From Eledone cirrhosa (Eukaryota): 64,000 nt of DNA. Position numbers and translations under genes: made by a program. Shown here piece after piece: positions 2,673 through 57,700 of this stretch (position 1 is the stretch's first letter; every line of letters starts with the position of its first letter). Below the pieces are notes generated by a model. The model saw only the letters and a program-made list of their open reading frames with translations. It was not told the DNA's origin and ran no database searches. The stretch lies in contig OZ024750.1 of NCBI GenBank assembly GCA_964016885.1, positions 44,826,001-44,890,000 of the forward strand, given 5' to 3'.

Positions 2673-2868
2673 GGAATTTTACCCGCCCTATATATATATA
2701 TATATATATATTGGAATAAATGCTCTGAAATAGCGATATATATGTGAATATAGACATAGAATATTCGAAAATATTCTGTATGTTTATAATAAACATTTTG
2801 AAGACCCAATCGCTATAGAATAGAATACGTCACGTATTACAATTAGATTCTCGACAAAAGCAAGGGAA

Positions 2869-2911
2869 GTAATCTACGCGTTTCATTCTTGTTAGAAATC
2901 ATCAGGACTAC
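2869..2911 (-). ncRNA. Minimal type I hammerhead ribozyme (first of 12 minus-strand copies, period 310, last at 6279-6321)
   Basis: Minus strand reads GUAGUC-CUGAUGA-UUUCU AACA AGAAU-GAAA-CGCG-UA|GAUUAC. Stem I is GUAGUC/GAUUAC, stem II is UUCU/AGAA, stem III is the palindrome ACGCGU, and the cleavage triplet is GUA. Confidence 0.88.
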
Positions 2912-5900: not shown

Positions 5901-6617
5901 AAGACCCAATCGCTATAGAATAGAATACGTCACGTATTACAATTAGATTCTCGACAAAAGCAAGGGAAGTAATCTACGCGTTTCATTCTTGTTAGAAATC
6001 ATCAGGACTACATATCCAGTGCTTTTATCGAGAATGACACAGCTAGAGACTTATAGAATACTTAGCTGTGTACAGGAACTGGTTTGAAAGAGCGGTTGCC
6101 GGTCCGGCAGAAATTAGAAATTGGAATAAATGCTCTGAAATAGCGATATATATGTGAATATAGACATAGAATATTCGAAAATATTCTGTATGTTTATAAT
6201 AAACATTTTGAAGACCCAATCGCTATAGAATAGAATACGTCACGTATTACAATTAGATTCTCGACAAAAGCAAGGGAAGTAATCTACGCGTTTCATTCTT
6301 GTTAGAAATCATCAGGACTACATATCCAGTGCTTTTATCGAGAATGACACAGCTAGAGACTTATAGAATACTTAGCTGTGTACAGGAACTGGTTTGAAAG
6401 AGCGGTTGCCGGTCCGGCAGAAATTAGAAATTGGAATAAATGCTCTGAAATAGCGATATATATGTGAATATAGACATAGAATATTCGAAAATATTCTGTA
6501 TGTTTATAATAAACATTTTGAAGACCCAATCGCTATAGAATAGAATACGTCACGTATTACAATTAGATTCTCGACAAAAGCAAGGGAAGTAATCTACGCG
6601 TTTCATTCACTGGATAT

Positions 6618-6660
6618 GTAGTCCTGATGATTTCTAACAAGAATGAAACGCGTAGATTAC
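6618..6660 (+). ncRNA. Minimal type I hammerhead ribozyme in the inverted arm (also 6928-6970 and 7238-7280)
   Basis: gtagtc CTGATGA tttctaacaagaat GAAA cgcg TA gattac, with predicted cleavage after 6654. In full units stem I extends by 16 bp (attctcgataaaagca / tgcttttgtcgagaat) beyond an internal loop. Confidence 0.88.
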
Positions 6661-7429
6661 TTCCCTTGCTTTTGTCGAGAATCTAATTGTAATACGTGAC
6701 GTATTCTATTCTATAGCGATTGGGTCTTCAAAATGTTTATTATAAACATACAGAATATTTTCGAATATTCTATGTCTATATTCACATATATATCGCTATT
6801 TCAGAGCATTTATTCCAATTTCTAATTTCTGCCGGACCGGCAACCGCTCTTTCAAACCAGTTCCTGTACACAGCTAAGTATTCTATAAGTCTCTAGCTGT
6901 GTCATTCTCGATAAAAGCACTGGATATGTAGTCCTGATGATTTCTAACAAGAATGAAACGCGTAGATTACTTCCCTTGCTTTTGTCGAGAATCTAATTGT
7001 AATACGTGACGTATTCTATTCTATAGCGATTGGGTCTTCAAAATGTTTATTATAAACATACAGAATATTTTCGAATATTCTATGTCTATATTCACATATA
7101 TATCGCTATTTCAGAGCATTTATTCCAATTTCTAATTTCTGCCGGACCGGCAACCGCTCTTTCAAACCAGTTCCTGTACACAGCTAAGTATTCTATAAGT
7201 CTCTAGCTGTGTCATTCTCGATAAAAGCACTGGATATGTAGTCCTGATGATTTCTAACAAGAATGAAACGCGTAGATTACTTCCCTTGCTTTTGTCGAGA
7301 ATCTAATTGTAATACGTGACGTATTCTATTCTATAGCGATTGGGTCTTCAAAATGTTTATTATAAACATACAGAATATTTTCGAATATTCTATGTCTATA
7401 TTCATATATATATATATATATATATATAT

Positions 7430-10726: not shown

Positions 10727-10760
<34 letters not shown>

Positions 10761-11153
10761 AAGAAAAAGAGATGAAATCGAAAATGCAACTGAAATCTTA
10801 TTTTAAAAAAAAATATATATATTTATTTGGTTCCTTTACCGGTTTCGCAGTTCTTCTGCTTTTCAAAAGGTGAGTTGAGATGGAGGGTCTGTGGTTTTTC
10901 TCATAGATGTGAGTTGAGATGGAGGGTCTGTGGTTTTTCTCACCGATGTGAGAAAAACCACAGATCCTCCATCTCAACTCACCTTTTGAAAAGCAGAAGA
11001 ACTGCGAAACCGGTAAAGGAACCAAATAAATATATATATTTTAAAAATAAGACTTCAGTTGCATTTTCGATTTCATCTCTTTTTCTTTATACTTTCACTC
11101 GTGTAGGACACCTCGGTTATTTTTCATTTTGTAAAAAAAACCTCACTTTCTAA
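10761..11153. mobile_element. Head-to-head foldback hammerhead element in (TA)n (U3-A8 family 1)
   Basis: Inverted arms meet near 10945. The left arm has an internal ~38-bp tandem duplication. Ribozymes at 10833-10870 (-) and 10982-11019 (+). (TA)n on both sides. Confidence 0.85.
10982..11019 (+). ncRNA. Minimal hammerhead ribozyme with variant core UUGAAAA
   Basis: cctt TTGAAAA gcag aagaa ctgc GAAA ccgg TA aagg. Stem I is cctt/aagg, stem II is gcag/ctgc, stem III is the palindrome ACCGGU. The C3-G8 pair is replaced by U3-A8. Confidence 0.8.
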
Positions 11154-11171
11154 TATATATATATATATATA

Positions 11172-31521: not shown

Positions 31522-31525
31522 ATAT

Positions 31526-31902
31526 AAATCATGAAAGAAGAGTGACACTGTTTGCTATACAAAAAAGGTTTTTAATCACATTGCTGATTACAACTATGTA
31601 TTGGTGATCAATTGACGCGAAAACAGGCGGGTAGCGATCTCTAGACCTACAAATCCAGAGGAACAATTGTCAGCAATTTGATTAAAATCCTTTTTTGTAT
31701 AGCAAACCGTGTCACTCTTCTTTCTTGATTTATCATTACTCCAAGTCTTAACAACATAGAAATCACCGCGTACTCGTAGCATCACTATGGAAACGCCTTG
31801 TTGAGTCAAACTTAGCCAAGCGTTGATATCATCCACTACTCGGAGTACCCTAACTGGACTACACCTAAGTGGACTACCTATAACAATAATCTGTTATCCC
31901 GT
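31526..31902. mobile_element. Foldback element in (TA)n with a core-deleted hammerhead (31747-31805, +)
   Basis: 31526-31588 is an inverted repeat of ~31668-31732. The motif cttaac [AA] catag...ctatg GAAA cgcc TT gttgag keeps stems I and II, but only AA remains of the 7-nt core. Confidence 0.6.
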
Positions 31903-31921
31903 TATATATATATATATATAT

Positions 31922-32927
31922 ATACATTATGAAGAGAGAAGAAACATTTAGATATAATTAGTAATAAAATGTATCATACCTAAACTGTTCCTAAATTCCT
32001 CGACTACGTAGTTTCGTGGCATAAACAAAAACAATATATCAAAGATATAGAGTCCTTGCGAGGTCTGCCGACTTATCAAGAGGATACCTCATTTTACTAG
32101 TCTCAAGAACGCGTCTACACGACGTGAGAAAGAATCCCAAAAGGCGGAGGGGGAGATAGTCACGCGATATAACGGTCGAGAAACAGAGCTAAGCCTCTTA
32201 TAACCACGAAGAAAATACCACGGAGGCGGAGGGGGTATTCATATCGAGGCCGTAGAAGAGGTAGTGAAGAAGGCGAGAGGTATGAGTAATGGAAGCTTTC
32301 CAGTTGTCCCCACACCTCAAAGATTGCTCGACCAGAGGGAGTTATTAATATATTTAGAAACACACAGATACATGCGGACGCACACATATATACATGAATG
32401 CATCCGCACCCAACTGTGAGTTAAGGGTGCCAACTTCACCGATGTTGCTCAATGAATGACTGGGACAGACCAATTTTTCTTCGTGGTTATAAGAGGCTTA
32501 GCTCTGTTTCTCGACCGTTATATCGCGTGACTATCCCCCCCTCCGCCTTTTGGGATTCTTTCTCACGTCGTGTAGACGCGTTCTTGAGACTAGTAAAATG
32601 AGGTATCCTCTTGATAAGTCGGCAGACCTCGCAAGGACTCTATATCTTTGATATATTGTTTTTGTTTATGCCACGAAACTACGTAGTCGAGGAATTTAGG
32701 AACAGTTTAGGTATGATACATTTTATTACTAATTATATCTAAATGTTTCTTCTCTCTTCATAATGTATGTTTAACTCTGATACTGGTTCAGTCTAGTTCA
32801 AACTGAATTGGTCTGTCCCAGTCATTCATTGAGCAACATCGGTGAAGTTGGCACCCTTAACTCACAGTTGGGTGCGGATGCATTCATGTATATATGTGTG
32901 CGTCCGCATGTATCTGTGTGTTTCTAA

Positions 32928-32935
<8 letters not shown>
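31922..32935. mobile_element. Head-to-head hammerhead element whose arms are circular permutations of a ~590-nt monomer
   Basis: Blocks run A(31922-32215) x B(32346-32475) | A'(32475-32768) y B'(32806-32935), where A' and B' are reverse complements of A and B. (TA)n on both sides. Confidence 0.88.
32606..32693 (+). ncRNA. Hammerhead ribozyme with variant core UUGAUAA and extended stem II (mirror copy 31997-32084, -)
   Basis: tcctc TTGATAA gtcggca...tgccac GAAA ctacgtag TC gagga. Stem I is tcctc/gagga, stem III is the palindrome ACUACGUAGU, and the triplet is GUC. Confidence 0.8.
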
Positions 32936-32996
<61 letters not shown>

Positions 32997-36016: not shown

Positions 36017-36920
36017 GCGATGACAATGACAAGGAGAACAACAGCAGCACTAGCGAGGAATACAATAACAGCAGCACTAGTGATGACAATCACAAGGAGA
36101 ACAACAGCAGCACTAGCGAGGAATACGACAACAGCAGCACTAGTGATGACAATAACGACAACAGCAGCACTAGTGAGGAATACAGCAACAACAGCACTAG
36201 TGAGGAATACTACAACAGCAGCACTAGTGAGGAATACAGCAACAGCAGCACTAGTGAGGAATACAACAACAGCAACACTAGTGAGGAATATAACAACAGC
36301 AGCACTAGAGAGGAATACAACAACAGCAACACTAGTGAGGAATATAACAACAGCAGCACTAGTGAGGAATACAACAACAGCAGCACTAGTGAGGAATACA
36401 ACAACAGCAGCACTAGTGAGGAATATAACAACAGCAGCACTAGTGAGGAATACAGCAACAACAGCACTAGTGAGGAATACAACAACAGCAACACTAGTGA
36501 GGAATACAGCACAACAGCACTACTGAGGAATACAGCAACAACAGCACTACTGAGGAATATAACAACAGCAGCACTAGTGAAGACAATGACAAGGAGAACA
36601 ACAGCAGATGCGAGGGATACGACAACAGCAGCAGTAGCGAGGAATACAGCAACAACAGCACTAGTGAGGAACACAGCAACAACAGCTCTAGTCATGAAAA
36701 TGACAAGGAGAACAACAGCAGATGCGAGGGATACGACAACGGCAGCACATGCGAGGAATACAGCAACATCAGCACTAGTGATGACAATAACGACACAGCA
36801 GCACTAGTGAGGAATACAGCAACAACAGCACTAGTGATGACAACGATAGAAACAAGTGTCAGTGATGACAACAACAAAACAGCATCATTGAGGACAAGAC
36901 AACAACAACAACAGCAACAA
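36017..36920. repeat. 27-bp AAC/AGC-based minisatellite (AACAACAGCAGCACTAGTGAGGAATAC)
   Basis: Direct periodicity, with a frameshift near 36510. Confidence 0.9.
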
Positions 36921-38639: not shown

Positions 38640-41600
38640 TAGGTGGTGTTAGTGTCAGTGGGGGTGGTGGTGTTAGTGTCAGTGGTAGTGGTGGTGTTAG
38701 TGTCAGTGGTAGTGGTGGTGTTAGTGTCAGTGGGGTGGTGGTGTTAGTGTCAGTGGGGGTGGTGGTGTTAGTGTCAGTGGGGGTGGTGGTGTTAGTGTCA
38801 GTGGTAGTGGTGGTGTTAGTGTCAATGGTAGTGGTGGTGTTAGTGTCAGTGGGGGTGGTGGTGTTAGTGTCAGTGGTAGTGGTGGTGTTAGTGTCAGTGG
38901 TAGTGGTGGTGTTAGTGTCCGTGGTAGTGGTGGTGTTAGTGTCAGTGGTAGTGGTGGTGTTAGTGTCAGTGGGGGGGGGTGTTAGTGTCAGTGGCGGTGG
39001 TGGTGTTAGTGTCAGTGGGGGTGGTGGTGTTAGTGTCAGTGGCGGTGGTGGTGTTAGTGTCAGTGGTAGTGGTGGTGTTAGTGTCAGTGGTGGTGGTGGT
39101 GTTAGTGTCAGTGGTAGTGGTGGTGTTAGTGTCAGTGGGGGGGGGGTGTTAGTGTCAGTGGTAGTGGTGGTGTTAGTGTCAGTGGGGGTGGTGGTGTTAG
39201 TGTCAGTGGGGGTGGTGGTGTTAGTGTCAGTGGTAGTGGTGGTGTTAGTGTCAGTGGTAGTGGTGGTGTTAGTGTCAGTGGGGGTGGTGGTGTTAGTGTC
39301 AGTGGGGGTGGTGGTGTTAGTGTCAGTGTGGGGGGGGGGTGTTAGTGTCAGTGGTAGTGGTGGTGTTAGTGTCAGTGGTAGTGGTGGTGATAGTGTCAGT
39401 GGTAGTGGTGGTGTTAGTGTCAGTGGTAGTGGTGGTGATAGTGTCAGTGGTAGTGGTGGTGTTAGTGTCAGTGGTAGTAGTGGTGTTAGTGTCAGTTGTA
39501 GTGGTGGTGTTAGTGTCAGTGGTAGTGGTGGTGTTAGTGTCAGTGGTAGTGGTGGTGTTAGTGTCAGTGGTAGTGGTGGTGTTAGTGTCAGTGGTAGTGG
39601 TGGTGATAATGTCAGTGGTAGTGGTGGTGTTAGTGTCAGTGGGGGTGGTGGTGTTAGTGTCAGTGGTAGTGGTGGTGTTAGTGTCAGTGGTAGTGGTGGT
39701 GTTAGTGTCAGGGGTAGTGGTGGTGGTGTTATTGGTAGTGGTGGTGTTAGTGTCAGTGGTAGTGATGGTGTTAGTGTCAGTGGTAGTGGTGGTGTTAGTG
39801 TCAGTGGTAGTGGTGGTGTTAGTGTCAGTGGTAGTGGTGGTGATAGTGTCAGTGGTAGTGGTGGTGTTAGTGTCAGTGGTAGTGGTGGTGTTAGTGTCAG
39901 TGGTAGTGGTGGTGATAGTGTCAGTGGTAGTAGTGGTGTTAGTGTCAGTGGTAGTAGTGGTGTTAGTGTCAGTGGTAGTGGTGGTGATAGTGTCAGTGGT
40001 AGTGGTGGTGTTAGTGTCAGTGGTAGTGGTGGTGTTAGTGTCAGTGGTAGTGGTGGTGTTAGTGTCATGGTAGTGATGGTGTTAGTATCAATGGTAGTGG
40101 TGGTGTTAGTGTCAGTGGTAGTGGTGGTGATAGTGTCAGTGGTAGTGGTGCTGATAGTGTCAGTGGTAGTGGTGGTGTTAGTGTCAGAGGTAGTGGTGGT
40201 GTTAGTGTCAGTGGTAGTGGTGGTGTTCGTGTCAGTGGTAGTGGTGGTGTTAGTGTCAGTGGTAGTGGTGGTGTTAGTGTCAGTGGTGGTGGTGGTGTTA
40301 GTGTTATTGGTAGTGGTGGTGTTAGTGTCAGTGGGGGTGGTGGTGTTAGTGTTATTGGTAGTGGTGGTGTTAGTGTCAGTGGTAGTGGTGGTGTTAGTGT
40401 CAGTGGTGGTGGTGGTGTTAGTGTTATTGGTAGTGGTGGTGTTAGTGTCAGTGGTAGTGGTGGTGGTGTTATTGGTAGTGGTGGTGTTAGTGTTATTGGT
40501 AGTGGTGGTGTTAGTGTCAGTGGTAGTGGTGGTGTTAGTGTCAGTGGTAGTGGTGGTGGTGTTAGTGTCAGTGGTGGTGTTAGTGTCAGTGGTGGTGGTG
40601 GTGTTAGTGTCAGAGGTAGTGGTGGTGTTAGTGTCAGTGGTAGTGGTGGTGTTAGTGTCAGTGGTAGTGGTGGTGTTAGTGTCAGTGGTAGTGGTGGTGT
40701 TAGTGTCAGTGGTGGTGGTGGTGTTAGTGTCAGTGGTGGTGGTGGTGTTAGTGTCAGTGGTAGTGGTGGTGTTAGTGTCAGTGGGGGGGGGGGTGTTAGT
40801 GTCAGTGGTAGTGGTGGTGTTAGTGTCAGTGGGGGTGGTGGTGTTAGTGTCAGTGGGGGTGGTGGTGTTAGTGTCAGTGGTAGTGGTGGTGTTAGTGTCA
40901 GTGGTAGTGGTGGTGTTAGTGTCAGTGGGGGTGGTGGTGTTAGTGTCAGTGGGGGTGGTGGTGTTAGTGTCAGTGTGGGGGGGGGGGGGGGGGTGTTAGT
41001 GTCAGTGGTAGTGGTGGTGTTAGTGTCAGTGGTAGTGGTGGTGATAGTGTCAGTGGTAGTGGTGGTGTTAGTGTCAGTGGTAGTGGTGGTGATAGTGTCA
41101 GTGGTAGTGGTGGTGTTAGTGTCAGTGGTAGTAGTGGTGTTAGTGTCAGTTGTAGTGGTGGTGTTAGTGTCAGTGGTAGTGGTGGTGTTAGTGTCAGTGG
41201 TAGTGGTGGTGTTAGTGTCAGTGGTAGTGGTGGTGTTAGTGTCAGTGGTAGTGGTGGTGATAATGTCAGTGGTAGTGGTGGTGTTAGTGTCAGTGGGGGT
41301 GGTGGTGTTAGTGTCAGTGGTAGTGGTGGTGTTAGTGTCAGTGGTAGTGGTGGTGTTAGTGTCAGGGGTAGTGGTGGTGGTGTTATTGGTAGTGGTGGTG
41401 TTAGTGTCAGTGGTAGTGATGGTGTTAGTGTCAGTGGTAGTGGTGGTGTTAGTGTCAGTGGTAGTGGTGGTGTTAGTGTCAGTGGTAGTGGTGGTGATAG
41501 TGTCAGTGGTAGTGGTGGTGTTAGTGTCAGTGGTAGTGGTTGTGTTAGTGTCAGTGGTAGTGGTGGTGATAGTGTCAGTGGTAGTAGTGGTGTTAGTGTC

Positions 41601-44600
41601 AGTGGTAGTAGTGGTGTTAGTGTCAGTGGTAGTGGTGGTGATAGTGTCAGTGGTAGTGGTGGTGTTAGTGTCAGTGGTAGTGGTGGTGTTAGTGTCAGTG
41701 GTAGTGGTGGTGTTAGTGTCATGGTAGTGATGGTGTTAGTATCAATGGTAGTGGTGGTGTTAGTGTCAGTGGTAGTGGTGGTGATAGTGTCAGTGGTAGT
41801 GGTGCTGATAGTGTCAGTGGTAGTGGTGGTGTTAGTGTCAGAGGTAGTGGTGGTGTTAGTGTCAGTGGTAGTGGTGGTGTTCGTGTCAGTGGTAGTGGTG
41901 GTGTTAGTGTCAGTGGTAGTGGTGGTGTTAGTGTCAGTGGTGGTGGTGGTGTTAGTGTTATTGGTAGTGGTGGTGTTAGTGTCAGTGGGGGTGGTGGTGT
42001 TAGTGTTATTGGTAGTGGTGGTGTTAGTGTCAGTGGTAGTGGTGGTGTTAGTGTCAGTGGTGGTGGTGGTGTTAGTGTTATTGGTAGTGGTGGTGTTAGT
42101 GTCAGTGGTAGTGGTGGTGGTGTTATTGGTAGTGGTGGTGTTAGTGTTATTGGTAGTGGTGGTGTTAGTGTCAGTGGTAGTGGTGGTGTTAGTGTCAGTG
42201 GTAGTGGTGGTGGTGTTAGTGTCAGTGGTGGTGTTAGTGTCAGTGGTGGTGGTGGTGTTAGTGTCAGAGGTAGTGGTGGTGTTAGTGTCAGTGGTAGTGG
42301 TGGTGTTAGTGTCAGTGGTAGTGGTGGTGTTAGTGTCAGTGGTAGTGGTGGTGTTAGTGTCAGTGGTGGTGGTGGTGTTAGTGTCAGTGGTGGTGGTGGT
42401 GTTAGTGTCAGTGGTAGTGGTGGTGTTAGTGTCAGTGGTAGTGGTGGTGTTAGTGTCAGTGGTGGTGGTGGTGTTAGTGTCAGTGGTAGTGGTGGTGTTA
42501 GTGTCAGTGGTGGTGGTGGTGTTAGTGTCAGTGGTAGTGGTGGTGGTGTTAGTGTCAGTGGTGGTGTTAGTGTCAGTGGTAGTGGTGGTGTTAGTGTCAG
42601 TGGTAGTGGTGGTGGTGTTAGTGTCAGTGGTGGTGTTAGTGTCAGTGGTAGTGGTGGTGTTAGTGTCAGTGGTAGTGGTGGTGTTAGTGTCAGTGGTGGT
42701 GGTGGTGTTAGTGTCAGTGGTAGTGGTGGTGTTAGTGTCAGTGGTAGTGGTGGTGTTAGTGTCAGTGGTAGTGGTGGTGTTAGTGTCAGTGGTAGTGGTG
42801 GTGTTAGTGTCAGTGGTGGTGGTGGTGTTAGTGTCAGTGGTAGTGGTGGTGTTAGTGTCAGTGGTAGTGGTGGTGGTGTTAGTGTCAGTGGTGGTGTTAG
42901 TGTCAGAGGTGGTGGTGGTGTTAGTGTCAGTGGTGGTGGTGGTGTTAGTGTCAGCGGTAGTGGTGGTGTTAGTGTCAGTGGTAGTGGTGGTGTTAGTGTC
43001 AGTGGTGGTGGTGGTGTTAGTGTTATTGGTAGTGGTGGTGTTAGTGTCAGTGGTAGTGTTGGTGTTAGTGTCAGTGGTAGTGGTGGTGGTGTTATTGGTA
43101 GTGGTGGTGTTAGTGTTATTGGTAGTGGTGGTGTTAGTGTCAGAGGTAGTGGTGGTGGTGTTATTGGTAGTGGTGGTGTTAGTGTTTTTGGTGGTGGTGG
43201 TGTTAGTGTCAGTGGTAGTGGTGGTGTTAGTGTCAGTGGTAGTGGTGGTGTTAGTGTCAGTGGTGGTGTTAGTGTCAGAGGTAGTGGTGGTGTTAGTGTC
43301 AGTGGTGGTGGTGGTGTTAGTGTCAGTGGTAGTGGTGGTGTTAGTGTCAGTGATAGTGGTGGTGTTTGTGTCAGTGGTGGTGGTGGTGTTAGTGTCAGCG
43401 GTAGTGGTGGTGTTAGTGTCAGCGGTAGTGGTGGTGTTAGTGTCAGTGGTGGTGGTGGTGTTAGTGTCAGCGGTAGTGGTGGTGTTAGTGTCAGTGGTAG
43501 TGGTGGTGTTAGTGTCAGTGGTAGTGGTGGTGTTAGTGTCAGCGGTAGTGGTGGTGTTAGTGTCAGTGGTAGTGGTGGTGTTAGTATCAGTGGTGGTGGT
43601 GGTGTTAGTGTCAGTGGTAGTGGTGGTGTTAGTGTCAGTGGTAGTGGTGGTGTTAGTGTCAGTGGTAGTGGTGGTGTTAGTATCAGTGGTGGTGGTGGTG
43701 TTAGTGTCAGTGGTAGTGGTGGTGTTAGTGTCAGTGGTAGTGGTGGTGTTAGTATCAGTGGTGGTGGTGGTGTTAGTGTCAGAGGTGGTGGTGGTGGTGT
43801 TATTGGTAGTGGTGGTGTTAGTGTCAGTGGTAGTGGTGGTGTTAGTGTCAGTGGTGGTGGTGGTGTTAGTGTTATTGGTAGTGGTGGTGTTAGTGTCAGT
43901 GGTAGTGGTGGTGGTGTTATTGGTAGTGGTGGTGTTAGTGTTATTGGTAGTGGTGGTGTTAGTGTCAGTGGTAGTGGTGGTGTTAGTGTCAGTGGTAGTG
44001 GTGGTGTTAGTGTCAGTGGTAGTGGTGGTGTTAGTGTCAATGGTAGTGGTGGTGTTAGTGTCAGTGGTAGTGGTGGTGTTAGTGTCAGTGGTAGTGGTGG
44101 TGTTAGTGTCAGTGGTAGTGGTGGTGGTGTTATTGGTAGTGGTGGTGTTAGTGTCAGTGGTAGTGGTGGTGGTGTTATTGGTAGTGGTGGTGTTAGTGTC
44201 AGTGGTAGTGGTGGTGTTAGTGTCAGTGGTAGTGGTGGTGTTAGTGTCAGCGGTAGTGGTGGTGATAGTGTCAGTGGTAGTGGTGGTGTTAGTGTCAGTG
44301 GTAGTGGTGGTGTTAGTGTCAGTGGTAGTGATGGTGTTAGTGTCAGTGGTAGTGGTGGTGTTAGTGTCAGTGGTAGTGGTGGTGTTAGTGACAGTGGTGG
44401 TGTTAGTGTCAGAGGTAGTGGTGGTGTTAGTGTCAGTGGTAGTGGTGGTGTTAGTGTCAGTGGTAGTGGTGGTGTTAGTGTCAGTGGTAGTGGTGGTGTT
44501 AGTGTCAGTGGTGGTGTTAGTGTCAGAGGTAGTGGTGGTGTTAGTGTCAGTGGTGGTGGTGGTGTTAGTGTCAGCGGTAGTGGTGGTGTTAGTGTCAGTG

Positions 44601-47600
44601 GTAGTGGTGGTGTTAGTGTCAGTGGTGGTGGTGGTGTTAGTGTTATTGGTAGTGGTGGTGTTAGTGTTATTGGTAGTGGTGGTGTTAGTGTCAGTGGTAG
44701 TGGTGGTGTTAGTGTCAGTGGTAGTGGTGGTGTTAGTGTCAGTGGTAGTGATGGTGTTAGTGTCAGTGGTAGTGGTGGTGTTAGTGTCAGTGGTAGTGGT
44801 GGTGTTAGTGTCAGTGGTAGTGGTGGTGTTAGTGTCAGTGGTAGTGGTGGTGTTAGTGTCAGTGGTAGTGGCGGTGTTAGTGTCAGTGGTAGTGATGGTG
44901 TTAGTATCAGTGGTGGTGGTGGTGTTAGTGTCAGAGGTAGTGGTGGTGTTAGTGTCAGCGGTAGTGGTGGTGTCAGTGGTAGTGGTGGTGTTAGTGTCAG
45001 TGGAGGTGGTGGTGTTAGTGTCAGCGGTAGTGGTGGTGTTAGTGTCAGTGGTAGTGGTGGTGTTAGTGTCAGTGGTGGTGGTGGTGTTAGTGTTATTGGT
45101 AGTGGTGGTGTTAGTGTCAGTTGTAGTGGTGGTGTTAGTGTCAGTGGTAGTGGTGGTGTTAGTGTTATTGGTAGTGGTGGTGTTAGTGTCAGCGGTAGTG
45201 GTGGTGTTAGTGTCAGTGGTGGTGGTGGTGTTAGTGTCAGTGGTAGTGGTGGTGTTAGTGTCAGTGGTAGTGATGGTGTTAGTGTCAGCGGTAGTGGTGG
45301 TGTTAGTGTCAGAGGTAGTGGTGGTGTTAGTGTCAGTGGTAGTGGTGGTGTTAGTGTCAGAGGTAATGGTGGTGTTAGTGTCAGTGGTAGTGATGGTGTT
45401 AGTGTCAGTGGAGGTGGTGGTGTTAGTGTCAGTGATAATGGTGGTGTTAGTGTCAGTGGTAGTGGTGGTGTTAGTGTCAGTGGTAGTGGTGGTGTTAGTG
45501 TCAGTGGTAGTGGTGGTGTTAGTGTCAGTGATAGTGGTGGTGTTAGTGACAGTGGTAGTGGTGGTGTTAGTGTCAGTGGTAGTGGTGGTGTTAGTGTCAG
45601 TGATAGTGGTGGTGTTAGTGTCAGTGGTAGTGGTGGTGTTAGTGTCAGTGGTTGTGGTGGTGTTAGTGTCAGTGGTAGTGGTAGTGGTGGTGTTAGAGTC
45701 AGAGGTAGTGGTGGTGTTAGTGTCAGTGGTGTTGGTGGTGTTAGTGTCAGTGGTAGTGGTGGTGTTAGTGTCAGTGGTAGTGGTGGTGTTAGTGTCAGTG
45801 GTAGTGGAGGTGGTGGTATTGGTAGTGGTGGTGTTAGTGTCAGTGGTAGTGGTGGTGTTAGTGTCAGTGGTAGTGGTGGTGTTAGTGTCAGTGGTAGTGG
45901 TGGTGTTAGTGTCAGTGGTGGTGGTGGTGTTAGTGTCAGAGGTAGTGGTGGTGTTAGTGTCAGTGGTAGTGGTGGTGTTAGTGTCAGTGGTAGTGGTGGT
46001 GTTAGTGTCAGTGGTGGTGGTGGTGTTAGTGTCAGAGGTAGTGGTGGTGTTAGTGTCAGTGGTAGTGGTGGTGTTAGTGTCAGTGGGGGTGGTGGTGTTA
46101 GTGTCAGTGGGGGTGGTGGTGTTAGTGTCAGTGGTAGTGGTGGTGTTAGTGTCAGTGATAGTGGTGGTGTTAGTGTCAGTGGTAGTGGTGGTGTTAGTGT
46201 CAGTGGTAGTGGTGGTGTTAGTGTCAGTGGTGGTGGTGGTGTTAGTGTCAGAGGTAGTGGTGGTGTTAGTGTCAGTGGTAGTGGTGGTGTTAGTGGTGGT
46301 GTTAGTGTCAGTGGTAGTGGGGGTGTTAGTGTCAGTGGTGGTGGTGGTGTTAGTGTCAGATGTAGTGGTGGTGTTAGTGTCAGTGGTAGTGGTGGTGTTA
46401 GTGTCAGTGGTAGTGGTGGTGTTAGTGTCAGTGGTAGTGGTGTTGTTAGTGTCAGTGGTAGTGGTGGTGTTCGTGTCAGTGGTGGTGGTGGTGTTAGTGT
46501 CAGAGGTAGTGGTGGTGTTAGTGTCAGAGGTAGTGGTGGTGTTAGTGTCAGAGGTAGTGTTGGTGTTAGTGTCAGTGGTAGTGGTGGTGTTAGTGTCAGT
46601 GGTGGTGGTTGTGTAAGTGTCAGAGGTAGTGGTGGTGTTAGTGTCAGTGGTAGTGGTGGTGTTAGTGTCAGTGGTAGTGGTGGTGTTAGTGTCAGTGGTA
46701 GTGGTGTTGTTAGTGTCAGTGGTAGTGGTGGTGTTCGTGTCAGTGGTGGTGGTGGTGTTAGTGTCAGAGGTAGTGGTGGTGTTAGTGTCAGTGGTAGTGG
46801 TGGTGTTAGTGTCAGTGGTAGTGGTGGTGTTAGTGTCAGTGGTAGTGGTGGTGTTAGTGTCAGTGGTAGTGGTGGTGTTAGTGTCAGTGGGGTGGTGGTG
46901 TTAGTGTCAGTGGTAGTGATGGTGTTAGTGTCAGTGGTAGTGATGGTGTTAGTGTCAGTGGTAGTGATGGTGTTAGTGTCAGTGATTGTGGTGGTGTTAG
47001 TGTCAGTGGTAGTGGTGGTGTTAGTGTCAGTGGTGGTGGTTGTGTAAGTGTCAGAGGTAGTGGTGGTGTTAGTGTCAGTGGTAGTGGTGGTGTTAGTGTC
47101 AGTGGTAGTGGTGGTGTTAGTGTCAGTGATAGTGGTGGTGTTAGTGTCAGTGGTAGTGGTGGTGTTAGTGTCAGTGGTAGTGGTGGTGTTAGTGTCAGTG
47201 GTAGTGGTGGTGTTAGTGTCAGTGGTAGTGGTGGTGTTAGTGCCAGTGGTAGTGGTGGTGTTAGTGTCAGTGATTGTGGTGGTGTTAGTGTCAGTGGTAG
47301 TGGTGGTGTTAGTGTCAGTGGTGGTGGTGGTGTTAGTGTCAGTGGTAGTGATGGTGTTAGTGTCAGTGGTAGTGGTGGTGTTAGTGTCAGTGGTAGTGGT
47401 GGTGTTAGTGTCAGTGGTAGTGGTGGTGTTAGTGTCAGTGGTAGTGGTGGTGTTAGTGCCAGTGGTAGTGGTGGTGTTAGTGTCAGTGATTGTGGTGGTG
47501 TTAGTGTCAGTGGTAGTGGTGGTGTTAGTGTCAGTGGTGGTGGTGGTGTTAGTGTCAGTGGTAGTGATGGTGTTAGTGTCAGTGGTAGTGGTGGTGTTAG

Positions 47601-47878
47601 TGTCAGTGGTAGTGGTGGTGTTAGTGCCAGTGGTAGTGGTGGTGTTAGTGTCAGTGATAGTGGTGGTGTTAGTGTCAGTGGTAGTGGTGGTGTTAGTGTC
47701 AGTGGTAGTGGTGGTGTTAGTGTCAGTGTGGGTGGTGGTGTTAGTGTCAGTGGTAGTGGTGGTGTTAGTGTCAGTGGTAGTGGTGGTGTTAGTGTCAGTG
47801 GTGGTGGTGGTGTTAGTGTCAGTGGTAGTGTTGGTGTCAGTGTCAGTGGTAGTGGTGGTGTTAGTGTCAGTGGGGGTG
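38640..47878. repeat. ~9.2-kb 24-bp minisatellite (GTGGTGGTGTTAGTGTCAGTGGTA)
   Basis: Direct periodicity with variant units. A higher-order duplication has a period of 1654 bp. Confidence 0.97.
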
Positions 47879-48714: not shown

Positions 48715-51700
48715 GTGATGGTATTGGTGTTGTTGTTGGTGATGGTATTGGTGTTGTTGTTGATGATGGTATTGGGGTTGTTTTTGGTGATGGTATTGGT
48801 GTTGTTGATGGTGATGGTATTGGTGTTGTTGATGTCGATGGCTTTTGCCGTTGTCATATTGGTGATGGTATTGGGGTTGTTATTGGTGATGGTATTGATG
48901 TTGTTGGTGATGGTATTGATGTTGTTGGTGATGGTATTGGGGTTGTTGTTGGTGATGGTATTGGGGTTGTTGTTGGTGATGGTATTGGTGTTGTTGTTGG
49001 TGATGGTATTGATGATGTTGTTGGTGATGGTATTGATGTTGTTGTTGGTGATGGTATTGGGATTGTTGTTGGTGATGGTATTGGGGTTGTTGGTGATGGT
49101 ATTGGGGTTGTTGTTGTTGATTGTTTTGGGGTTGTTGTTGGTGATGGTATTGATGTTGTTGTTGGTGATGGTATTGATGTTGTTGTTGGTGATGGTATTG
49201 GTGTTGTTGTTGGTGATGGTATTGGTGTTGTTGTTGGTGATGGTATTGATGATGTTGTTGGTGATGGTATTGATGTTGTTGTTGGTGATGGTATTGGGGT
49301 TGTTGTTGGTGATGGTATTGAGGTTGTTGTTGTTGATGGTATTGGTGTTGTTGTTGGTGATGGTATTGGTGTTGTTGTTGATGATGGTATTGGGGTTGTT
49401 GTTGGTGATGGTATTGGGGTTGTTGTTGGTGATGGTATTGGGGTTGTTGTTGGTGATGGTATTGGTGTTGTTGGTGATGGTATAGGGGTTGTTGTTGGTG
49501 ATGGTATTGGTGTTGTTGTTGGTGATGGTATTGAGGTTGTTGTTGGTGTTGGTATTGGGGTTGTTGTTGGTGATGGTATTGGGGTTGTTGTTCGTGGTGG
49601 TATTGGGGTTGGTGTTGGTGATGGTATAGGTGTTGTTGTTGGTGATGGTATTGGTGTTGTTGTTGGTGATGGTATTGATGTTGTTGTTGGTGATGGTATT
49701 GGTGTTGTTGTTGGTGATGGTATTGGTGTTGTTGTTGGTGATGGTATTGGTGTTGTTGTTGGTGATGGTATTGGTGTTGTTGTTGGTGATGGTATTGGGG
49801 TTGTTGTTGGTGATGGTATTGGTGTTGTTGTTGGTGATGGTATTGGGGTTGTTGTTGGTGATGGTATTGGGGTTGTTGTTGGTGATGGTATTGGTGTGGT
49901 TGTTGGTGATGGTATTGAGGTTGTTGTTGTTGATGGTATTGGTGTTGTTGTTGGTGATGGTATTGGTGTTGTTGTTGATGATGGTATTGGTGTTGTTGTT
50001 GGTGATGGTATTGGGGTTGTTGTTGGTGATGGTATTGGGGTTGTTGTTGGTGATGGTATTGATGTTGTTGGTGATGGTATTGATGTTGTTGGTGATGGTA
50101 TTGGGGTTGTTGTTGGTGATGGTATTGGGGTTGTTGTTGGTGATGGTATTGGTGTTGTTGTTGGTGATGGTATTGATGATGTTGTTGGTGATGGTATTGA
50201 TGTTGTTGTTGGTGATGGTATTGGGATTGTTGTTGGTGATGGTATTGGGGTTGTTGGTGATGGTATTGGGGTTGTTGTTGTTGATTGTTTTGGGGTTGTT
50301 GTTGGTGATGGTATTGGTGTTGTTGTTGGTGATGGTATTGATGTTGTTGTTGGTGATGGTATTGATGTTGTTGTTGGTGATGGTATTGGTGTTGTTGTTG
50401 GTGATGGTATTGGGGTTGTTGTTGGTGATGGTATTGATGATGTTGTTGGTGATGGTATTGATGTTGTTGTTGGTGATGGTATTGGGATTGTTGTTGGTGA
50501 TGGTATTGATGTTGTTGGTGATGGTATTGGTGTTGTTGTTGTTGATTGTTTTGGGGTTGTTGTTGGTGATGGTATTGGTGTTGTTGTTGGTGATGGTATT
50601 GATGATGTTGTTGGTGATGGTATTGATGTTGTTGTTGGTGATGGTATTGGGATTGTTGTTGGTGATGGTATTGATGTTGTTGGTGATGGTATTGGTGTTG
50701 TTGTTGTTGATTGTTTTGGGGTTGTTGTTGGTGATGGTATTGGTGTTGTTGTTGGTGATGGTATTGGTGTTGTTGTTGGTGATGGTATTGGTGTTGTTGT
50801 TGGTGATGGTATTGATGATGTTGTTGGTGATGGTATTGATGTTGTTGTTGGTGATGGTATTGGGATTGTTGTTGGTGATGGTATTGATGTTGTTGGTGAT
50901 GGTATTGGTGTTGTTGTTGTTGATTGTTTTGGGGTTGTTGTTGGTGATGGTATTGGTGTTGTTGTTGGTGATGGTATTGGTGTTGTTGTTGGTGATGGTA
51001 TTGGTGTTGTTGTTGGTGATGGTATTGGTGTTGTTGTTGGTGATGGTATTGATGATGTTGTTGGTGATGGTATTGGTGTTGTTGTTGTTGATTGTTTTGG
51101 GGTTGTTGTTGGTGATGGTATTGGTGTTGTTGTTGGTGATGGTATTGGTGTTGTTGTTGGTGATGGTATTGGTGTTGTTGTTGGTGATGGTATTGGTGTT
51201 GTTGTTGGTGATGGTATTGGTGTTGTTGTTGGTGATGGTATTGGGGTTGTTGTTGTTGATGGTATTGATGATGTTGTTGGTGATGGTATTGATGTTGTTG
51301 TTGGTGATGGTATTGGGATTGTTGTTGGTGATGGTATTGGGGTTGTTGTTGGTGATGGTATTGGTGTTGTTGTTGGTGATGGTATTGATGATGTTGTTGG
51401 TGATGGTATTGATGTTGTTGTTGGTGATGGTATTGGGATTGTTGTTGGTGATGGTATTGGGGTTGTTGTTGGTGATGGTATTGGTGTTGTTGTTGGTGAT
51501 GGTATTGATGTTGTTGTTGGTGATGGTATTGGGATTGTTGTTGGTGATGGTATTGGGGTTGTTGTTGGTGATGGTATTGGTGTTGTTGTTGGTGATGGTA
51601 TTGGTGTTGTTGGTGATGGTATGGGGGTTGTTGTTGGTGATGGTATTGGTGTTGTTGTTGGTGATGGTATTGGTGTTGTTGTTGGTGATGGTATTGAGGT

Positions 51701-54700
51701 TGTTGTTGGTGATGGTATTGGGGTTGTTGTTGGTGATGGTATTGGGGTTGTTGTTCGTGGTGGTATTGGGGTTGGTGTTGGTGATGGTATAGGTGTTGTT
51801 GTTGGTGATGGTATTGGGGTTGTTGTTGGTGATGGTATTGGTGTTGTTGTTGGTGATGGTATTGGGGTTGTTGTTGGTGATGGTATTGGGGTTGTTGTTG
51901 GTGATAGTATTGGGGTTGTTGTTGGTGATGGTATTGGTGTTGTTGTTGGTGATGGTATTGGTGTTGTTGTTGGTGATGGTATTGGTGTGGTTGTTGGTGA
52001 TGGTATTGAGGTTGTTGTTGTTGATGGTATTGATGTTGTTGGTGATGGTATTGGTGTTGTTGTTGTTGATTGTTTTGGGGTTGTTGTTGGTGATGGTATT
52101 GGTGTTGTTGTTGGTGATGGTATTGGTGTTGTTGTTGGTGATGGTATTGGTGTTGTTGTTGGTGATGGTATTGATGATGTTGTTGGTGATGGTATTGATG
52201 TTGTTGTTGGTGATGGTATTGGGATTGTTGTTGGTGATGGTATTGATGTTGTTGGTGATGGTATTGGTGTTGTTGTTGTTGATTGTTTTGGGGTTGTTGT
52301 TGGTGATGGTATTGGTGTTGTTGTTGGTGATGGTATTGGTGTTGTTGTTGGTGATGGTATTGGTGTTGTTGTTGGTGATGGTATTGATGATGTTGTTGGT
52401 GATGGTATTGGTGTTGTTGTTGTTGATTGTTTTGGGGTTGTTGTTGGTGATGGTATTGGTGTTGTTGTTGGTGATGGTATTGGTGTTGTTGTTGGTGATG
52501 GTATTGGTGTTGTTGTTGGTGATGGTATTGATGATGTTGTTGGTGATGGTATTGATGTTGTTGTTGGTGATGGTATTGGGATTGTTGTTGGTGATGGTAT
52601 TGATGTTGTTGGTGATGGTATTGGTGTTGTTGTTGTTGATTGTTTTGGGGTTGTTGTTGGTGATGGTATTGGTGTTGTTGTTGGTGATGGTATTGGTGTT
52701 GTTGTTGGTGATGGTATTGGTGTTGTTGTTGGTGATGGTATTGGTGTTGTTGTTGGTGATGGTATTGGGGTTGTTGTTGTTGATGGTATTGATGATGTTG
52801 TTGGTGATGGTATTGATGTTGTTGTTGGTGATGGTATTGGGATTGTTGTTGGTGATGGTATTGGGGTTGTTGTTGGTGATGGTATTGGTGTTGTTGTTGG
52901 TGATGGTATTGATGATGTTGTTGGTGATGGTATTGATGTTGTTGTTGGTGATGGTATTGGGATTGTTGTTGGTGATGGTATTGGGGTTGTTGTTGGTGAT
53001 GGTATTGGTGTTGTTGTTGGTGATGGTATTGATGATGTTGTTGGTGATGGTATTGATGTTGTTGTTGGTGATGGTATTGGGATTGTTGTTGGTGATGGTA
53101 TTGGGGTTGTTGTTGGTGATGGTATTGGTGTTGTTGTTGGTGATGGTATTGGTGTTGTTGGTGATGGTATGGGGGTTGTTGTTGGTGATGGTATTGGTGT
53201 TGTTGTTGGTGATGGTATTGGTGTTGTTGGTGATGGTATGGGGGTTGTTGTTGGTGATGGTATTGGTGTTGTTGTTGGTGATGGTATTGGTGTTGTTGGT
53301 GATGGTATGGGGGTTGTTGTTGGTGATGGTATTGGTGTTGTTGTTGGTGATGGTATTGGTGTTGTTGGTGATGGTATGGGGGTTGTTGTTGGTGATGGTA
53401 TTGGTGTTGTTGTTGGTGATGGTATTGGTGTTGTTGTTGGTGATGGTATTGAGGTTGTTGTTGGTGATGGTATTGGGGTTGTTGTTGGTGATGGTATTGG
53501 GGTTGTTGTTCGTGGTGGTATTGGGGTTGGTGTTGGTGATGGTATAGGTGTTGTTGTTGGTGATGGTATTGGGGTTGTTGTTGGTGATGGTATTGGTGTT
53601 GTTGTTGGTGATGGTATTGGGGTTGTTGTTGGTGATGGTATTGGGGTTGTTGTTGGTGATAGTATTGGGGTTGTTGTTGGTGATGGTATTGGTGTGGTTG
53701 TTGGTGATGATATTGGTGTTGTCGTTGGTGATGGTATTGGTGTTGTTGTTGGTGATGGTATTGGGGTTGTTTTTGGTGATGGTATTGGGGTTGTTGTTGG
53801 TGATGGTATTGGGGTTGTTGTTGGTGATGGTATTGGTGATGTTGTTGGTGATGGTATTGAGGTTGTTGTTGTTGATGGTATTGAGGTTGTTGTTGGTGAT
53901 GGTATTGGTGTTGTTGTTGGTGATGGTATTGGTGTTGTTGTTGGTGATGGTATTGATGTTGTTGTTGGTGATGGTATTGGTGTTGTTGTTGGTGATGGTA
54001 TTGGTGATGTTGTTGGTGATGGTATTGGGGTTGTTGTTGGTGATGGTATTGGTGTGGTTGTTGGTGATGGTATTGAGGTTGTTGTTGTTGATGGTATTGG
54101 TGTTGTTGTTGGTGATGGTATTGGTGTTGTTGTTGGTGATGGTATTGGGGTTGTTGTTGGTGATGGTATTGGGGTTGTTGTTGGTGATGGTATTGGGGTT
54201 GTTGTTGGTGATGGTATTGGGGTTGTTGTTGGTGATGGTATTGGTGTTGTTGTTGGTGATGGTATTGGTGTTGTTGTTGGTGATGGTATTGGTGTTGTTG
54301 TTGGTGATGGTATTGGGGTTGTTGTTGGTGATGGTATTGGGGTTGTTGTTGGTGATGGTATTGGTGTGGTTGTTGGTGATGCTATTGGTGTTGTTGTTGG
54401 TGATGGTATTGGTGTGGTTGTTGGTGATGTTATTGGTGTTGTTGTTGGTGATGGTATTGGGGTTGTTGTTGGTGATGGTATTGGGGTTGTTGTTGGTGAT
54501 GGTATTGGGGTTGTTGTTGGTGATGGTATTGGTGTGGTTGTTGGTGATGCTATTGGTGTTGTTGTTGGTGATGGTATTGATGTTGTTGGTGATGGTATTG
54601 GGGTTGTTGTTGGTGATTGTATTGATGTTGTTGTTGGTGATGGTATTCGTGTTGTTGTTGGTGATGGTATTGGTGTTGTTGTTGGTGATGTTATTGGTGT

Positions 54701-57700
54701 TGTTGTTGTTGATGTTATTGGTGTTGTTGTTGGTGATGGTATTGGGGTTGTTGTTGGTGATGGTATTGGTGTTGTTGTTGGTGATTGTATTGATGTTGTT
54801 GTTGGTGATGGTATTGGTGTTGTTGTTGGTGATGGTATTGGTGTTGTTGTTGGTGATTGTATTGATGTTGTTGTTGTTGATTGTATTGGGGTTGTTGTTG
54901 GTGATGTTATTGGTGTTGTTGTTGGTGATGTTATTGGTTTTGCTGTTGGTGATGGTATTGGTGTTGTTGTTGGTGATGGTATTGGTGTTGTTGTTGGTGA
55001 TTGTATTGGGGTTGTTGTTGGTGATGTTATTGGTGTTGTTGTTGGTGATGTTATTGGTTTTGCTGTTGGTGATGGTATTGGGGTTGTTGTTGGTGATGGT
55101 ATTGGTGTTGTTGTTGGTGATTGTATTGATGTTGTTGTTGGTGATGGTATTGGTGTTGTTGTTGGTGATGGTATTGGTGTTGTTGTTGTTGATTGTATTG
55201 GGGTTGTTGTTGGTGATGTTATTGGTGTTGTTGTTGGTGATGGTATTGGGGTTGTTGTTGGTGATGGTATTGGTGTTGTTGTTGTTGATGTTATTGGTGT
55301 TGTTGTTGGTGATGGTACTGGTGTTGTGGTTGGTGATTGTATTGGTGTTGTTGTTGGTGATGTTATTGATGTTGTTGTTGTTGATGTTATTGGTGTTGTT
55401 GTTGGTGATGGTATTGGTGTTGTTGTTGGTGATGGTATTGGGGTTGTTGTTGGTGATGGTATTGGGGTTGTTGTTGGTGATGGTATTGGTTTTGTTGTTG
55501 GTGATGGTATTCGTGTTGTTGTTGTTGATGGTATTGGTGTTGTTGTTGGTGATGGTATTGGTGTTGTTGTTGGTGATGGTATTGGTGTTGTTGTTGGTGA
55601 TGGTATTGGTGTTGTTGTTGGTGATGGTATTCGTGTTGTTGTTGGTGATGGTATTGGTGTTGTTGTTGGTGATGGTATTCGTGTTGTTGTTGGTGATGGT
55701 ATTGGTGTTGTTGTTGGTGATGGTATTGATGTTGTTGTTGGTGATGGTATTCGTGTTGTTGTTGGTGATGGTATTGGTGTTGTTGTTGGTGATGGTATTC
55801 GTGTTGTTGTTGGTGATGGTATTGGTGTTGTTGTTGGTGATGGTATTCGTGTTGTTGTTGGTGATGGTATTGGTGTTGTTGTTGGTGATGGTATTCGTGT
55901 TGTTGTTGGTGATGGTATTGGTGTTGTTGTTGGTGATGGTATTCGTGTTGTTGTTGGTGATGGTATTGGTGTTGTTGTTGGTGATGGTATTCGTGTTGTT
56001 GTTGGTGATGGTATTGGTGTTGTTGTTGGTGATGGTATTCGTGTTGTTGTTGGTGATGGTATTGGTGTTGTTGTTGGTGATGGTATTCGTGTTGTTGTTG
56101 GTGATGGTATTGGTGTTGTTGTTGGTGATGGTATTGAGGTTGTTGTTGGTGATGGTATTGGTGTTGTTGTTGGTGATGGTATTCGTGTTGTTGTTGGTGA
56201 TGGTATTGGTGTTGTTGTTGGTGATGGTATTGGTGTTGTTGTTGGTGATGTTATTGGTGTTGTTGTTGGTGATGGTATTGGTGTTGTGGTTGGTGATGGT
56301 ATTGGGGTTGTTGTTGGTGATGGTATTCGTGTTGTTGTTGGTGATGGTATTGGGGTTGTTGTTGGTGATGGTATTCGTGTTGTTGTTGGTGATGGTATTG
56401 GGGTTGTTGTTGGTGATGGTATTCGTGTTGTTGTTGGTGATGGTATTGGGGTTGTTGTTGGTGATGGTATTCGTGTTGTTGTTGTTGATGGTATTGGTGT
56501 TGTTGTTGGTGATGGTATTGGTGTTGTTGTTGGTGATGGTATTCGTGTTGTTGTTGGTGATGGTATTGGTGTTGTTGTTGGTGATGGTATTGGTGTTGTT
56601 GTTGGTGATGGTATTGGTGTTTTTGTTGGTGATGGTATTGGTGGTGTTGTTGGTGATGGTATTGGTGTTGTTGTTGGTGATGCTATTGGTGTGGTTGTTG
56701 GTGATGGTATTGGTGTTGTTGTTGGTGATGGTATTCGTGTTGTTGTTGGTGATGGTATTCGTGTTGTTGTTGGTGATGGTATTGGTGTTTTTGTTGGTGA
56801 TGGTATTGGTGTTGTTGTTGGTGATGGTATTGGTGTTGTTGTTGGTGATGCTATTGGTGTGGTTGTTGGTGATGGTATTGGGGCTGTTGTTGGTGATGGT
56901 ATTGGGGTTGTTGTTGGTGATGGTATTGGTGTTGTTGTTGGTGATGGTATTGGTGTTTTTGTTGGTGATGGTATTGGTGTTGTTGTTGGTGATGGTATTG
57001 GTGTTGTTGTTGGTGATGCTATTGGTGTGGTTGTTGGTGATGGTATTGGGGCTGTTGTTGTTGATGGTATTGGTGTTGTTGTTGGTGATGGTATTGGTGT
57101 TGTTGTTGGTGATGGTATTGGTGTTGTTGTTGGTGATGGTATTGGTGTTGTTGTTGGTGATGGTATTCGTGTTTTTGTTGGTGATGGTATTGGTGTTGTT
57201 GTTGGTGATGGTATTGGTGTTGTTGTTGGTGATGGTATTCGTGTTGTTGTTGGTGATGGTATTGGTGTTGTTGTTGGTGATGGTATTGGGGTTGTTGTTG
57301 GTGATGGTATTGGTGTTGTTGTTGGTGATGGTATTGGTGTTTTTGTTGGTGATGGTATTGGTGTTGTTGTTGGTGATGGTATTGGTGTTGTTGTTGGTGA
57401 TGCTATTGGTGTGGTTGTTGGTGATGGTATTGGGGCTGTTGTTGTTGATGGTATTGGTGTTGTTGTTGGTGATGGTATTGGTGTTGTTGTTGGTGATGGT
57501 ATTGGTGTTGTTGTTGGTGATGGTATTGGTGTTGTTGTTGGTGATGGTATTCGTGTTTTTGTTGGTGATGGTATTGGTGTTGTTGTTGGTGATGGTATTG
57601 GTGTTGTTGTTGGTGATGGTATTCGTGTTGTTGTTGGTGATGGTATTGGTGTTGTTGTTGGTGATGGTATTGGGGTTGTTGTTGGTGATGGTATTGGTGT

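Follow-up and report, generated by a model that had tools for sequence, protein, structure and literature searches.

The inverted insertion at positions 31922-32935 of the window (i.e., the whole 64-kb stretch of DNA analysed here) appears to be a young, non-coding retrozyme of 591 nt, which would be mobilised in trans by Penelope-like elements (PLEs) and copied from an RNA circle by paired priming at a short (S) and a long (L) site; the probability of this reading is put at about 0.7. An earlier note on this DNA had described the two permuted arms, and had missed that they belong to a retrozyme family with a Penelope "tail", a (TA)n target and an editing footprint which favours a monomer over a multimer as template. 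What sets the family apart is its long unit, its tail of 165 nt and the strict pairing of one short with one long arm.

Architecture of the insertion

In ribozyme sense, the left arm reads B-x-A and the right arm A-y-B, as the earlier note had stated (Table 1). Blocks of 294 (A), 37 (y), 130 (B) and 130 nt (x) add up to a closed unit of 591 nt with one ribozyme. This reconstruction proved exact, since a natural 591-nt unit, cut from another locus (L009), matched the pieces of the window with 99.5-100% identity. Unit positions are numbered from the predicted ribozyme cut. Both arms cross this cut site, in keeping with the proposal of a circular or multimeric template; the T-rich microhomology postulated near 32475 shrinks to one shared T. 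Both outer ends of the arms extend into (TA)n. The two arms differ from each other at one shared site and carry no informative edit; the claim of a single template for this locus comes from the family, not from its own arms. The tail contains a long conserved hairpin, as predicted, immediately before site L.

No long frame was detected in any of the six frames of the unit, whose GC content is 42% (247/591). An autonomous Penelope-like element was ruled out, since no open reading frame for a reverse transcriptase or a GIY-YIG endonuclease was found in the unit or in the 64-kb window; nor was the unit similar to any of five proteins from local PLEs (best E value 0.12). The surroundings include a MITE-like, imperfect inverted repeat (76%; 31524-31733), 190 nt to the left of the element, and a GC-richer stretch with a 15-nt duplication (31740-31900).

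Table 1. Positions of features of the retrozyme insertion in the window.
Feature	Position	Strand	Remarks
Left arm	31922-32475	-	554 nt; unit 118-591, then 1-80; 99.8% identity to natural unit
Right arm	32475-32935	+	461 nt; unit 378-591, then 1-247; 99.6% identity to natural unit
5'-to-5' join of arms	32475	.	single shared T
Block A	31922-32215 and 32475-32768		reverse complements; 294 nt, 1 mismatch at 32536
Block B	32346-32475 and 32806-32935		reverse complements; 130 nt, 100% identity
Block x	32216-32345	-	unit 248-377, 130 nt, left arm only
Block y	32769-32805	+	unit 81-117, 37 nt, right arm only
Hammerhead-like motif, right arm	32607-32692	+	predicted cut after 32688
Hammerhead-like motif, left arm	31998-32083	-	predicted cut between 32002 and 32001
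165-nt "tail"	32769-32933	+	unit 81-245; terminates L arm, missing from end of S arm
Site S, internal pass	32763-32768	+	unit 75-80, ATGTAT
Site S, terminal copy	31922-31927	-	end of left arm
Site L	32928-32933	+	unit 240-245, ATATAT; continues into (TA)n target
(TA)n target, left part	31904-31921	.	
(TA)n target, right part	32936-32993	.	

Ribozyme motif

The ribozyme was identified by motif and stem pairing only. The motif has a type I hammerhead-like layout with stem I (CCTC/GAGG), the core TTGATAA, a long stem II and GAAA; stem III is self-complementary (palindromic), and the predicted cut site is GUC. Each 591-nt unit contains one such motif, hence the two at the locus described here. In the core, U3 and A8 replace C3 and G8, with retention of the 3-8 pair; this exchange would be tolerated. 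Core and stem III were invariant in 12 copies of 76-99% likeness. A comparison with Rfam revealed no family in the window at gathering score, and no hammerhead even at E values up to 10; in the minimum-energy folds calculated for motif and circle, stem III is held out of the active form. The exact motif pattern was matched 7,004 times in the 3.0-Gb genome (control, 0), a figure which represents ribozyme copies of all subfamilies, not insertions. A z score of -5.6 was calculated for the circular fold of the unit. Two-sided changes occurred in only 3 of 105 predicted pairs; thus, the hairpins are conserved, while proof by covariation is lacking.

Genomic copies and samples

A genome search with the left arm, for which 40 of 412 candidates were scored, yielded at least 103 matches of 97-100% identity. 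Many of these were spaced exactly 591 bp apart, as were the ribozyme motifs, and tandems of about 591 bp, expected elsewhere in the genome by the earlier note, are therefore present. The longest tandem in a single arm comprised 7.3 units, and arm lengths ranged from 0.1 to 7 turns.

Two samples were evaluated. Set A consisted of 55 merged stretches with 41 two-armed insertions and 16 single arms; it was picked by similarity and is therefore biased toward young, long copies. For set B, matches to the motif pattern on contig C1 were taken in order of position up to the hundredth, minus three clusters of set A; this set contained 46 stretches with 27 two-armed insertions (26 when one duplicated insertion is counted once) and 20 single arms (11 S, 8 L, 1 other). 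About a third of the insertions (the 16 of set A and the 20 of set B) thus show just one detectable arm. Neither a fixed 5' end nor a pair of LTRs was found in the 101 stretches. At one place on contig C4 (G000:C4, near 236196000-236199000; L128, L022), three retrozyme insertions of different ages adjoin in one (TA)n tract.

A near-identical unit is present in 20 public runs (X1-X20) from 17 organisms and 16 studies; this spread could be due to related species, shared material or recent transfer. No RNA data set was listed among the runs with the unit, which speaks neither for nor against expression. In run X1, the unit reached a very high summed depth, with 1,140 contigs, and showed partial A>G at unit positions 14 and 107; this run, which is of uncertain kind and without matched DNA, was left out of any inference on expression or editing. 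Run X4 contained a closed contig of 621 nt, which is compatible with a tandem as much as with a circle.

Two fixed 3' ends and the pairing of arms

The orientation of the two-armed insertions was 5'-to-5' throughout (41/41 in set A and 27/27 in set B), which bears out the suggestion that two separately primed cDNAs had been joined at their 5' ends. Variable permutation points, also anticipated in the earlier note, were found for the 5' ends; the 3' (priming) ends, however, are fixed at two sites, 80 nt (S; unit 74-82) and about 245 nt (L; unit 239-250) after the ribozyme cut. Among the 41 pairs of set A, 35 were S/L, one was L/L, one was S/S, two had an arm ending elsewhere and two were cut by an edge, the latter being read later as S/L as well. 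Thus, of the 37 pairs in which both ends fell on S or L, 35 combined one S with one L end (p 5e-9 relative to a coin toss). The 26 pairs of set B comprised 23 S/L, none with both ends at the same site and three with an end elsewhere, so that in this position-ordered sample all 23 pairs with both ends at the sites were S/L (p 1e-7); altogether, an arm ended elsewhere in five pairs of the two sets. Subfamilies of 76-95% identity have kept both ends, and in contigs of the independent run X1, loose (AT)n ends occur at S and L as well.

The S and L ends of both sets run into (TA)n throughout, and the words at S (ATGTAT) and L (ATATAT) are each able to pair with a (TA)n primer. At S, G77 was replaced by the A of the target in 14 of 84 termini versus 0 of 202 internal passes; an overwriting which is restricted to termini would be expected if the primer anneals at S. 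Words resembling those at S and L, located at unit 198-228 and 554, were unused, which indicates that position or structure matters; both sites are preceded by a long hairpin, according to structure prediction. Target-site duplications were not above shuffles (7 of 67, as compared with a shuffled mean of 2 and a maximum of 7).

A DNA-level origin, i.e., insertion or expansion of a tandem repeat as DNA, followed by inversion, fold-back or homogenisation through recombination or assembly, would find an analogy in gene conversion, which can homogenise inverted arms and tandem units, and a few pairs do possess near-palindromic joins (341/341, 176/176). Such an origin, however, cannot account for the S/L pairing, the uniform 5'-to-5' orientation, the strand-specific A>G changes described below or the presence of two constant 3' ends in (TA)n; in addition, the presence of 149 single-pass variants shows that the units were not collapsed. 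This explanation is very improbable and already largely refuted. The later inversion of a fixed linear element, which the earlier note had set against its own proposal, is likewise unsupported.

5' ends and joins

The 5' ends of the arms were scattered over the whole unit; some arms start at unit 1-23, yet the cut is no preferred point of 5' truncation. Of the 41 joins, 23 had an overlap of 1-7 nt, seven were flush and 11 contained 1-9 extra bases. Arm lengths were weakly anticorrelated (rho -0.32, p 0.06). At G000:C1:50594000 (L184), the join is filled by about 60 nt in which short pieces of the element are reiterated, representing a templated fill-in.

Twin priming, as known from L1, yields inverted 5' pieces, whose outer end varies and lies next to the start of the partner piece. 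Mobilisation in this manner by another reverse transcriptase and endonuclease, for example those of a microsatellite-targeting LINE, would be in line with the lack of a sequence link between the unit and PLEs. In the insertions analysed here, however, the inverted piece ends outwardly at a fixed site, and no set relation links the paired 5' ends, whose differences are spread over the unit. Moreover, a two-ended tail has been described, in the portions of the literature considered, as particular to PLEs (PMC8557442, PMC11167929), and the local PLEs possess one. A mobiliser other than a PLE is thus hardly to be expected.

Putative editing footprint and identity of the template

Variants were compared in 84 of 103 insertions, which were at least 96.5% identical to the unit, and were divided into those present in every pass and those present in a single pass. 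Of the 58 distinct sites with all-pass variants, 25 showed sense A>G and 8 T>C, whereas A>G made up 9 of 149 single-pass variants (T>C, 24; p 1e-9 for A>G versus all-pass). When only all-pass variants private to one insertion were considered, for which the direction of change is safe, A>G accounted for 11 of 31 (p 4e-5). Set B alone gave 18 of 39 for all-pass versus 4 of 45 for single-pass variants. A 5' G neighbour was present at one of the 25 A>G sites, compared with 28 of 133 adenosines; the preference of ADAR enzymes is known to include depletion of 5' G. Unit site 107 (UAG) occurred in all four haplotypes with each of sites 213, 194, 296 and 340 and must therefore have changed more than once. 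The picture is blurred by four A>G sites which were carried by some, but not all, passes of an insertion. At site 21, the passes of one such insertion show G,G,T,G; this could be, as an anecdotal case, one inosine which was read four times. In the predicted fold, the edited sites were barely more paired than other adenosines (0.66 vs 0.60).

Minor alleles in the paired arms of 56 two-armed insertions agreed in 87 cases and disagreed in 12, while shuffled arm pairs agreed in 9.6% on average and in 20% at most. The only S/S insertion (L052, G000:C1:297550475 region) accounts for seven of the 12 disagreements; its arms represent different haplotypes, and one of them carries an internal deletion. 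The L/L insertion was uninformative in this respect. The ribozyme seam was crossed 159 times with one indel. A cluster of errors at the seam, noticed by eye only, was dismissed (5 seen versus 2.7 expected, p 0.14).

Taken together, the A>G changes and the shared alleles point to an ADAR-edited monomer, most likely a circle, which was re-read from both nicked strands. The occurrence of the edits in all passes, and not in single ones, favours a circle over an uncleaved multimer. An alternative, albeit an unlikely one, is double priming by a PLE on RNA transcribed from a donor array, which would be long, multimeric and uncleaved: donor arrays of seven or more units exist, homogeneous donors would provide all passes with the same variants, a protein dimer could force S and L onto one unit, and the element Poseidon PAc used mainly unprocessed RNA in vitro (PMC11167929). 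Editing of such a transcript should hit single units, contrary to the proportions of A>G among single-pass (9/149) and private all-pass variants (11/31), and a new edit could reach every pass only if one monomer was re-read at some step. The all-pass edits and shared haplotypes would be accounted for equally well by a self-cleaved linear monomer, on which the reverse transcriptase jumps precisely from the 5' end to the 3' end of the same molecule, with no ligation being involved; linear monomers of retrozymes are known (PMC7229834). A circle is preferred in this case because the seam is clean: the 159 crossings with one indel, seam errors which were not in excess, and 5' truncations which are spread over the unit, with no heap at the cut, render precise jumping rather improbable, even more so than copying of a multimer. 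What counts against the circle is that the one PLE studied in vitro used mainly uncleaved RNA and primed without homology (PMC11167929).

Proposed mechanism

Tandem genomic copies would give rise to transcripts, from which the hammerhead would release monomers that become closed into a structured RNA circle, as may be deduced from the retrozyme literature; the A>G pattern suggests that ADAR could edit some adenosines of this circle. A PLE endonuclease would presumably nick both strands of a (TA)n tract, and the two freed 3' ends could pair through AT-rich words of about 6 nt with S (+80) and L (+245) on one and the same RNA. Such primer pairing is supported by the overwriting of G77 at the termini. 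Two reverse transcriptases would then make 0.1 to 7 turns of the presumed circle, crossing the ribozyme seam; the cDNAs would stop at unrelated points and become joined 5'-to-5' by microhomology of 0-7 nt or short fill-ins, perhaps through host end joining. The arms of the expected product lie head-to-head, and only one of them bears the tail; in the present case, the S arm has 554 nt and the L arm 461 nt. A stricter version, for which the odds are only slightly better than even, holds that each two-armed insertion is the fossil of a single A-to-I-edited RNA circle, which was held by a dimer of Penelope reverse transcriptase and copied simultaneously from both cut (TA)n strands at the two fixed sites.

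Penelope-like relatives and search for a helper

The genome holds 10,595 GIY-YIG candidates, of which 150 were scored and 46 loci were examined. Several PLE families possess long frames with matches to reverse transcriptase and GIY-YIG, although the reverse transcriptase scores of two such families were slightly under the Pfam cut-off. Local families contain the C-x4-C-xx-C linker of the Neptune/Nematis type, a criterion taken from PMC8557442, and minimal palindromic hammerheads. One autonomous family has the U3/A8 core, with 6,009 exact copies of the motif; its short end lies 79-82 nt after the cut, like that of the retrozyme, and the long end is at 142-151 nt in most cases. All nine resolved pairs combined a short with a long end, three further pairs being ambiguous. 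Since the S/L rule is also true of a long autonomous PLE, the rule alone does not need a circle.

No alignable homology of the unit to an autonomous PLE was detected at E < 0.01 in the 46 GIY-YIG loci from the 10,595 candidates, and the pattern search of the genome revealed no PLE parent with a short-stem version of the retrozyme ribozyme; the short-stem pattern with the same palindrome was matched 11 times, eight of the matches being retrozyme copies (control, 2). The word TTTCTAA, common to the retrozyme and the long end of the PLE family, was discarded as a weak link, not being conserved in older retrozyme subfamilies. The Neptune-type PLE with the U3/A8 core is the best helper candidate, if a weak one.

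A tiny head-to-head insertion of this PLE, with one short and one long end, is located in the window at about 10760-11160; its ribozymes are at 10837-10870 (- strand) and 10982-11015 (+ strand), and a further remnant lies near 12030. Other local PLE families (L123, L117, L110, L082-L105) likewise have fixed ends in (TA)n. In one of these, the ends are near +122 and +165, with L123 having one of each; another, whose core is likewise TTGATAA, has one end located at about +182 to +202.

Other features of the window

A second retrozyme family of the same build occupies positions 2710-7413. Its unit of 310 nt has the canonical CTGATGA core and a CGCG palindrome; the arms, of 12.6 (left) and 2.6 units (right) with 99.6-100% identity, meet head-to-head at about 6608, and both ends lie in (TA)n, about 26 nt apart on the unit. 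Positions 1178-1917 contain tandem copies of 168-186 nt, which we take to resemble a tRNA-derived SINE. Judged by its SINE and microsatellite content, the host may be a cephalopod of octopus type. One array of 27-bp repeats (36037-36837) and two very long arrays of 24-bp repeats (38642-47873 and 48715-64000) show strong strand skew; some of their frames, translated in short pieces, correspond to Ser/Thr/Pro-rich, mucin-like repeats.

Comparison with known systems

By its motif, tandem arrangement, non-coding nature and GC content, the element is classed as a non-LTR retrozyme, and it would work like a non-autonomous PLE. Non-LTR retrozymes have been defined in PMC7229834, where their circular RNAs were shown and copying of the circles into tandem cDNA by PLEs was proposed; Li, Clavereau and Pollet linked retrozymes to the pLTRs of PLEs by sequence and reported self-cleavage of one of nine predicted elements of Xenopus (bioRxiv 10.64898/2026.07.22.740005). 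Features in common with metazoan non-LTR retrozymes are the non-coding tandem, one type I hammerhead and a GC content below 50%; LTR, PBS and PPT are absent from such retrozymes, and the 101 stretches likewise revealed no pair of LTRs. The unit of 591 nt compares with 170-400 nt (PMC7229834) and 51-972 bp (bioRxiv 10.64898/2026.07.22.740005). The parts of these two sources that were available contain no description of dispersed, short insertions of head-to-head type whose 3' ends are fixed at two sites in (TA)n. Specifically, the words "inverted" and "microsatellite" do not appear in the main text of PMC7229834, nor does "tail" in the preprint; RNA editing is named there only as one possible cause of heterogeneity. 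A plant LTR retrozyme, which has type III hammerheads in two LTRs and a 4-bp duplication, was ruled out by the type I topology, the lack of an LTR pair in the stretches analysed and the lack of a demonstrable duplication.

The EN+ PLEs of the Neptune type possess an inverted 5' copy, often a tail of 30-40 bp at one end, and (TA)n targets (PMC8557442). The retrozyme resembles EN+ PLEs in 5' truncation, partial tandems, an inverted 5'-truncated copy, a tail at one end, (TA)n and a palindromic stem III; it differs from them in the absence of an open reading frame, in the length of the tail (165 nt vs 30-40 bp) and in a long instead of a minimal stem II (PMC8557442). No alignable pLTR parent of the retrozyme was found in the 46 GIY-YIG loci. 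For Poseidon PAc of the green anole, two internal start sites, cleavage and extension of both strands and a predicted dimer have been reported (PMC11167929). The two internal starts which define a tail, the AT-rich target and the extension of both strands, which is deduced for the retrozyme, are shared; the sites of Poseidon PAc, however, are adjacent, priming proceeds with no homology and the RNA is uncleaved (PMC11167929), whereas those of the retrozyme are separated by 165 nt, share a match of about 6 nt with the (TA)n primer and are used once each per insertion. Chlamys elements such as MRC1 are also non-autonomous, of PLE type, and form multicopy head-to-tail insertions; in contrast to the retrozyme, their 3' end generally resembles that of the autonomous partner, and most Chlamys elements have no hammerhead (PMC8557442).

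Significance

Since retrozyme circles, PLE tails and inverted copies are already in print, the class of the element and the shape of the insertion are known. No paper was found on paired priming at two sites in retrozymes, on editing footprints in genomic copies or on the 591-nt family; older work on Penelope lies largely outside the literature searched, so that absence from print is not established. Copying of retrozyme circles by PLE enzymes is a hypothesis in the literature seen, and the inverted ends and one-sided tail of PLEs are a named open question there. With thousands of near-identical copies, priming sites, arm pairing and template identity become countable, and a protein-free substrate of 591 nt, together with intact local PLE frames (families L111, L113 and L114), would suit a test in vitro. 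The A>G pattern could serve generally to separate monomeric from multimeric templates in families of retrozymes or PLEs, and points to RNA editing which was written back into the germline genome. If the stricter version of the mechanism is true, the genome would be a base-by-base record of ADAR activity in the germline, the retrozyme family would owe its heritable change mainly to editing, and the one-end tail and the inverted 5' copy of Penelope elements would be the outcome of one event on one template.
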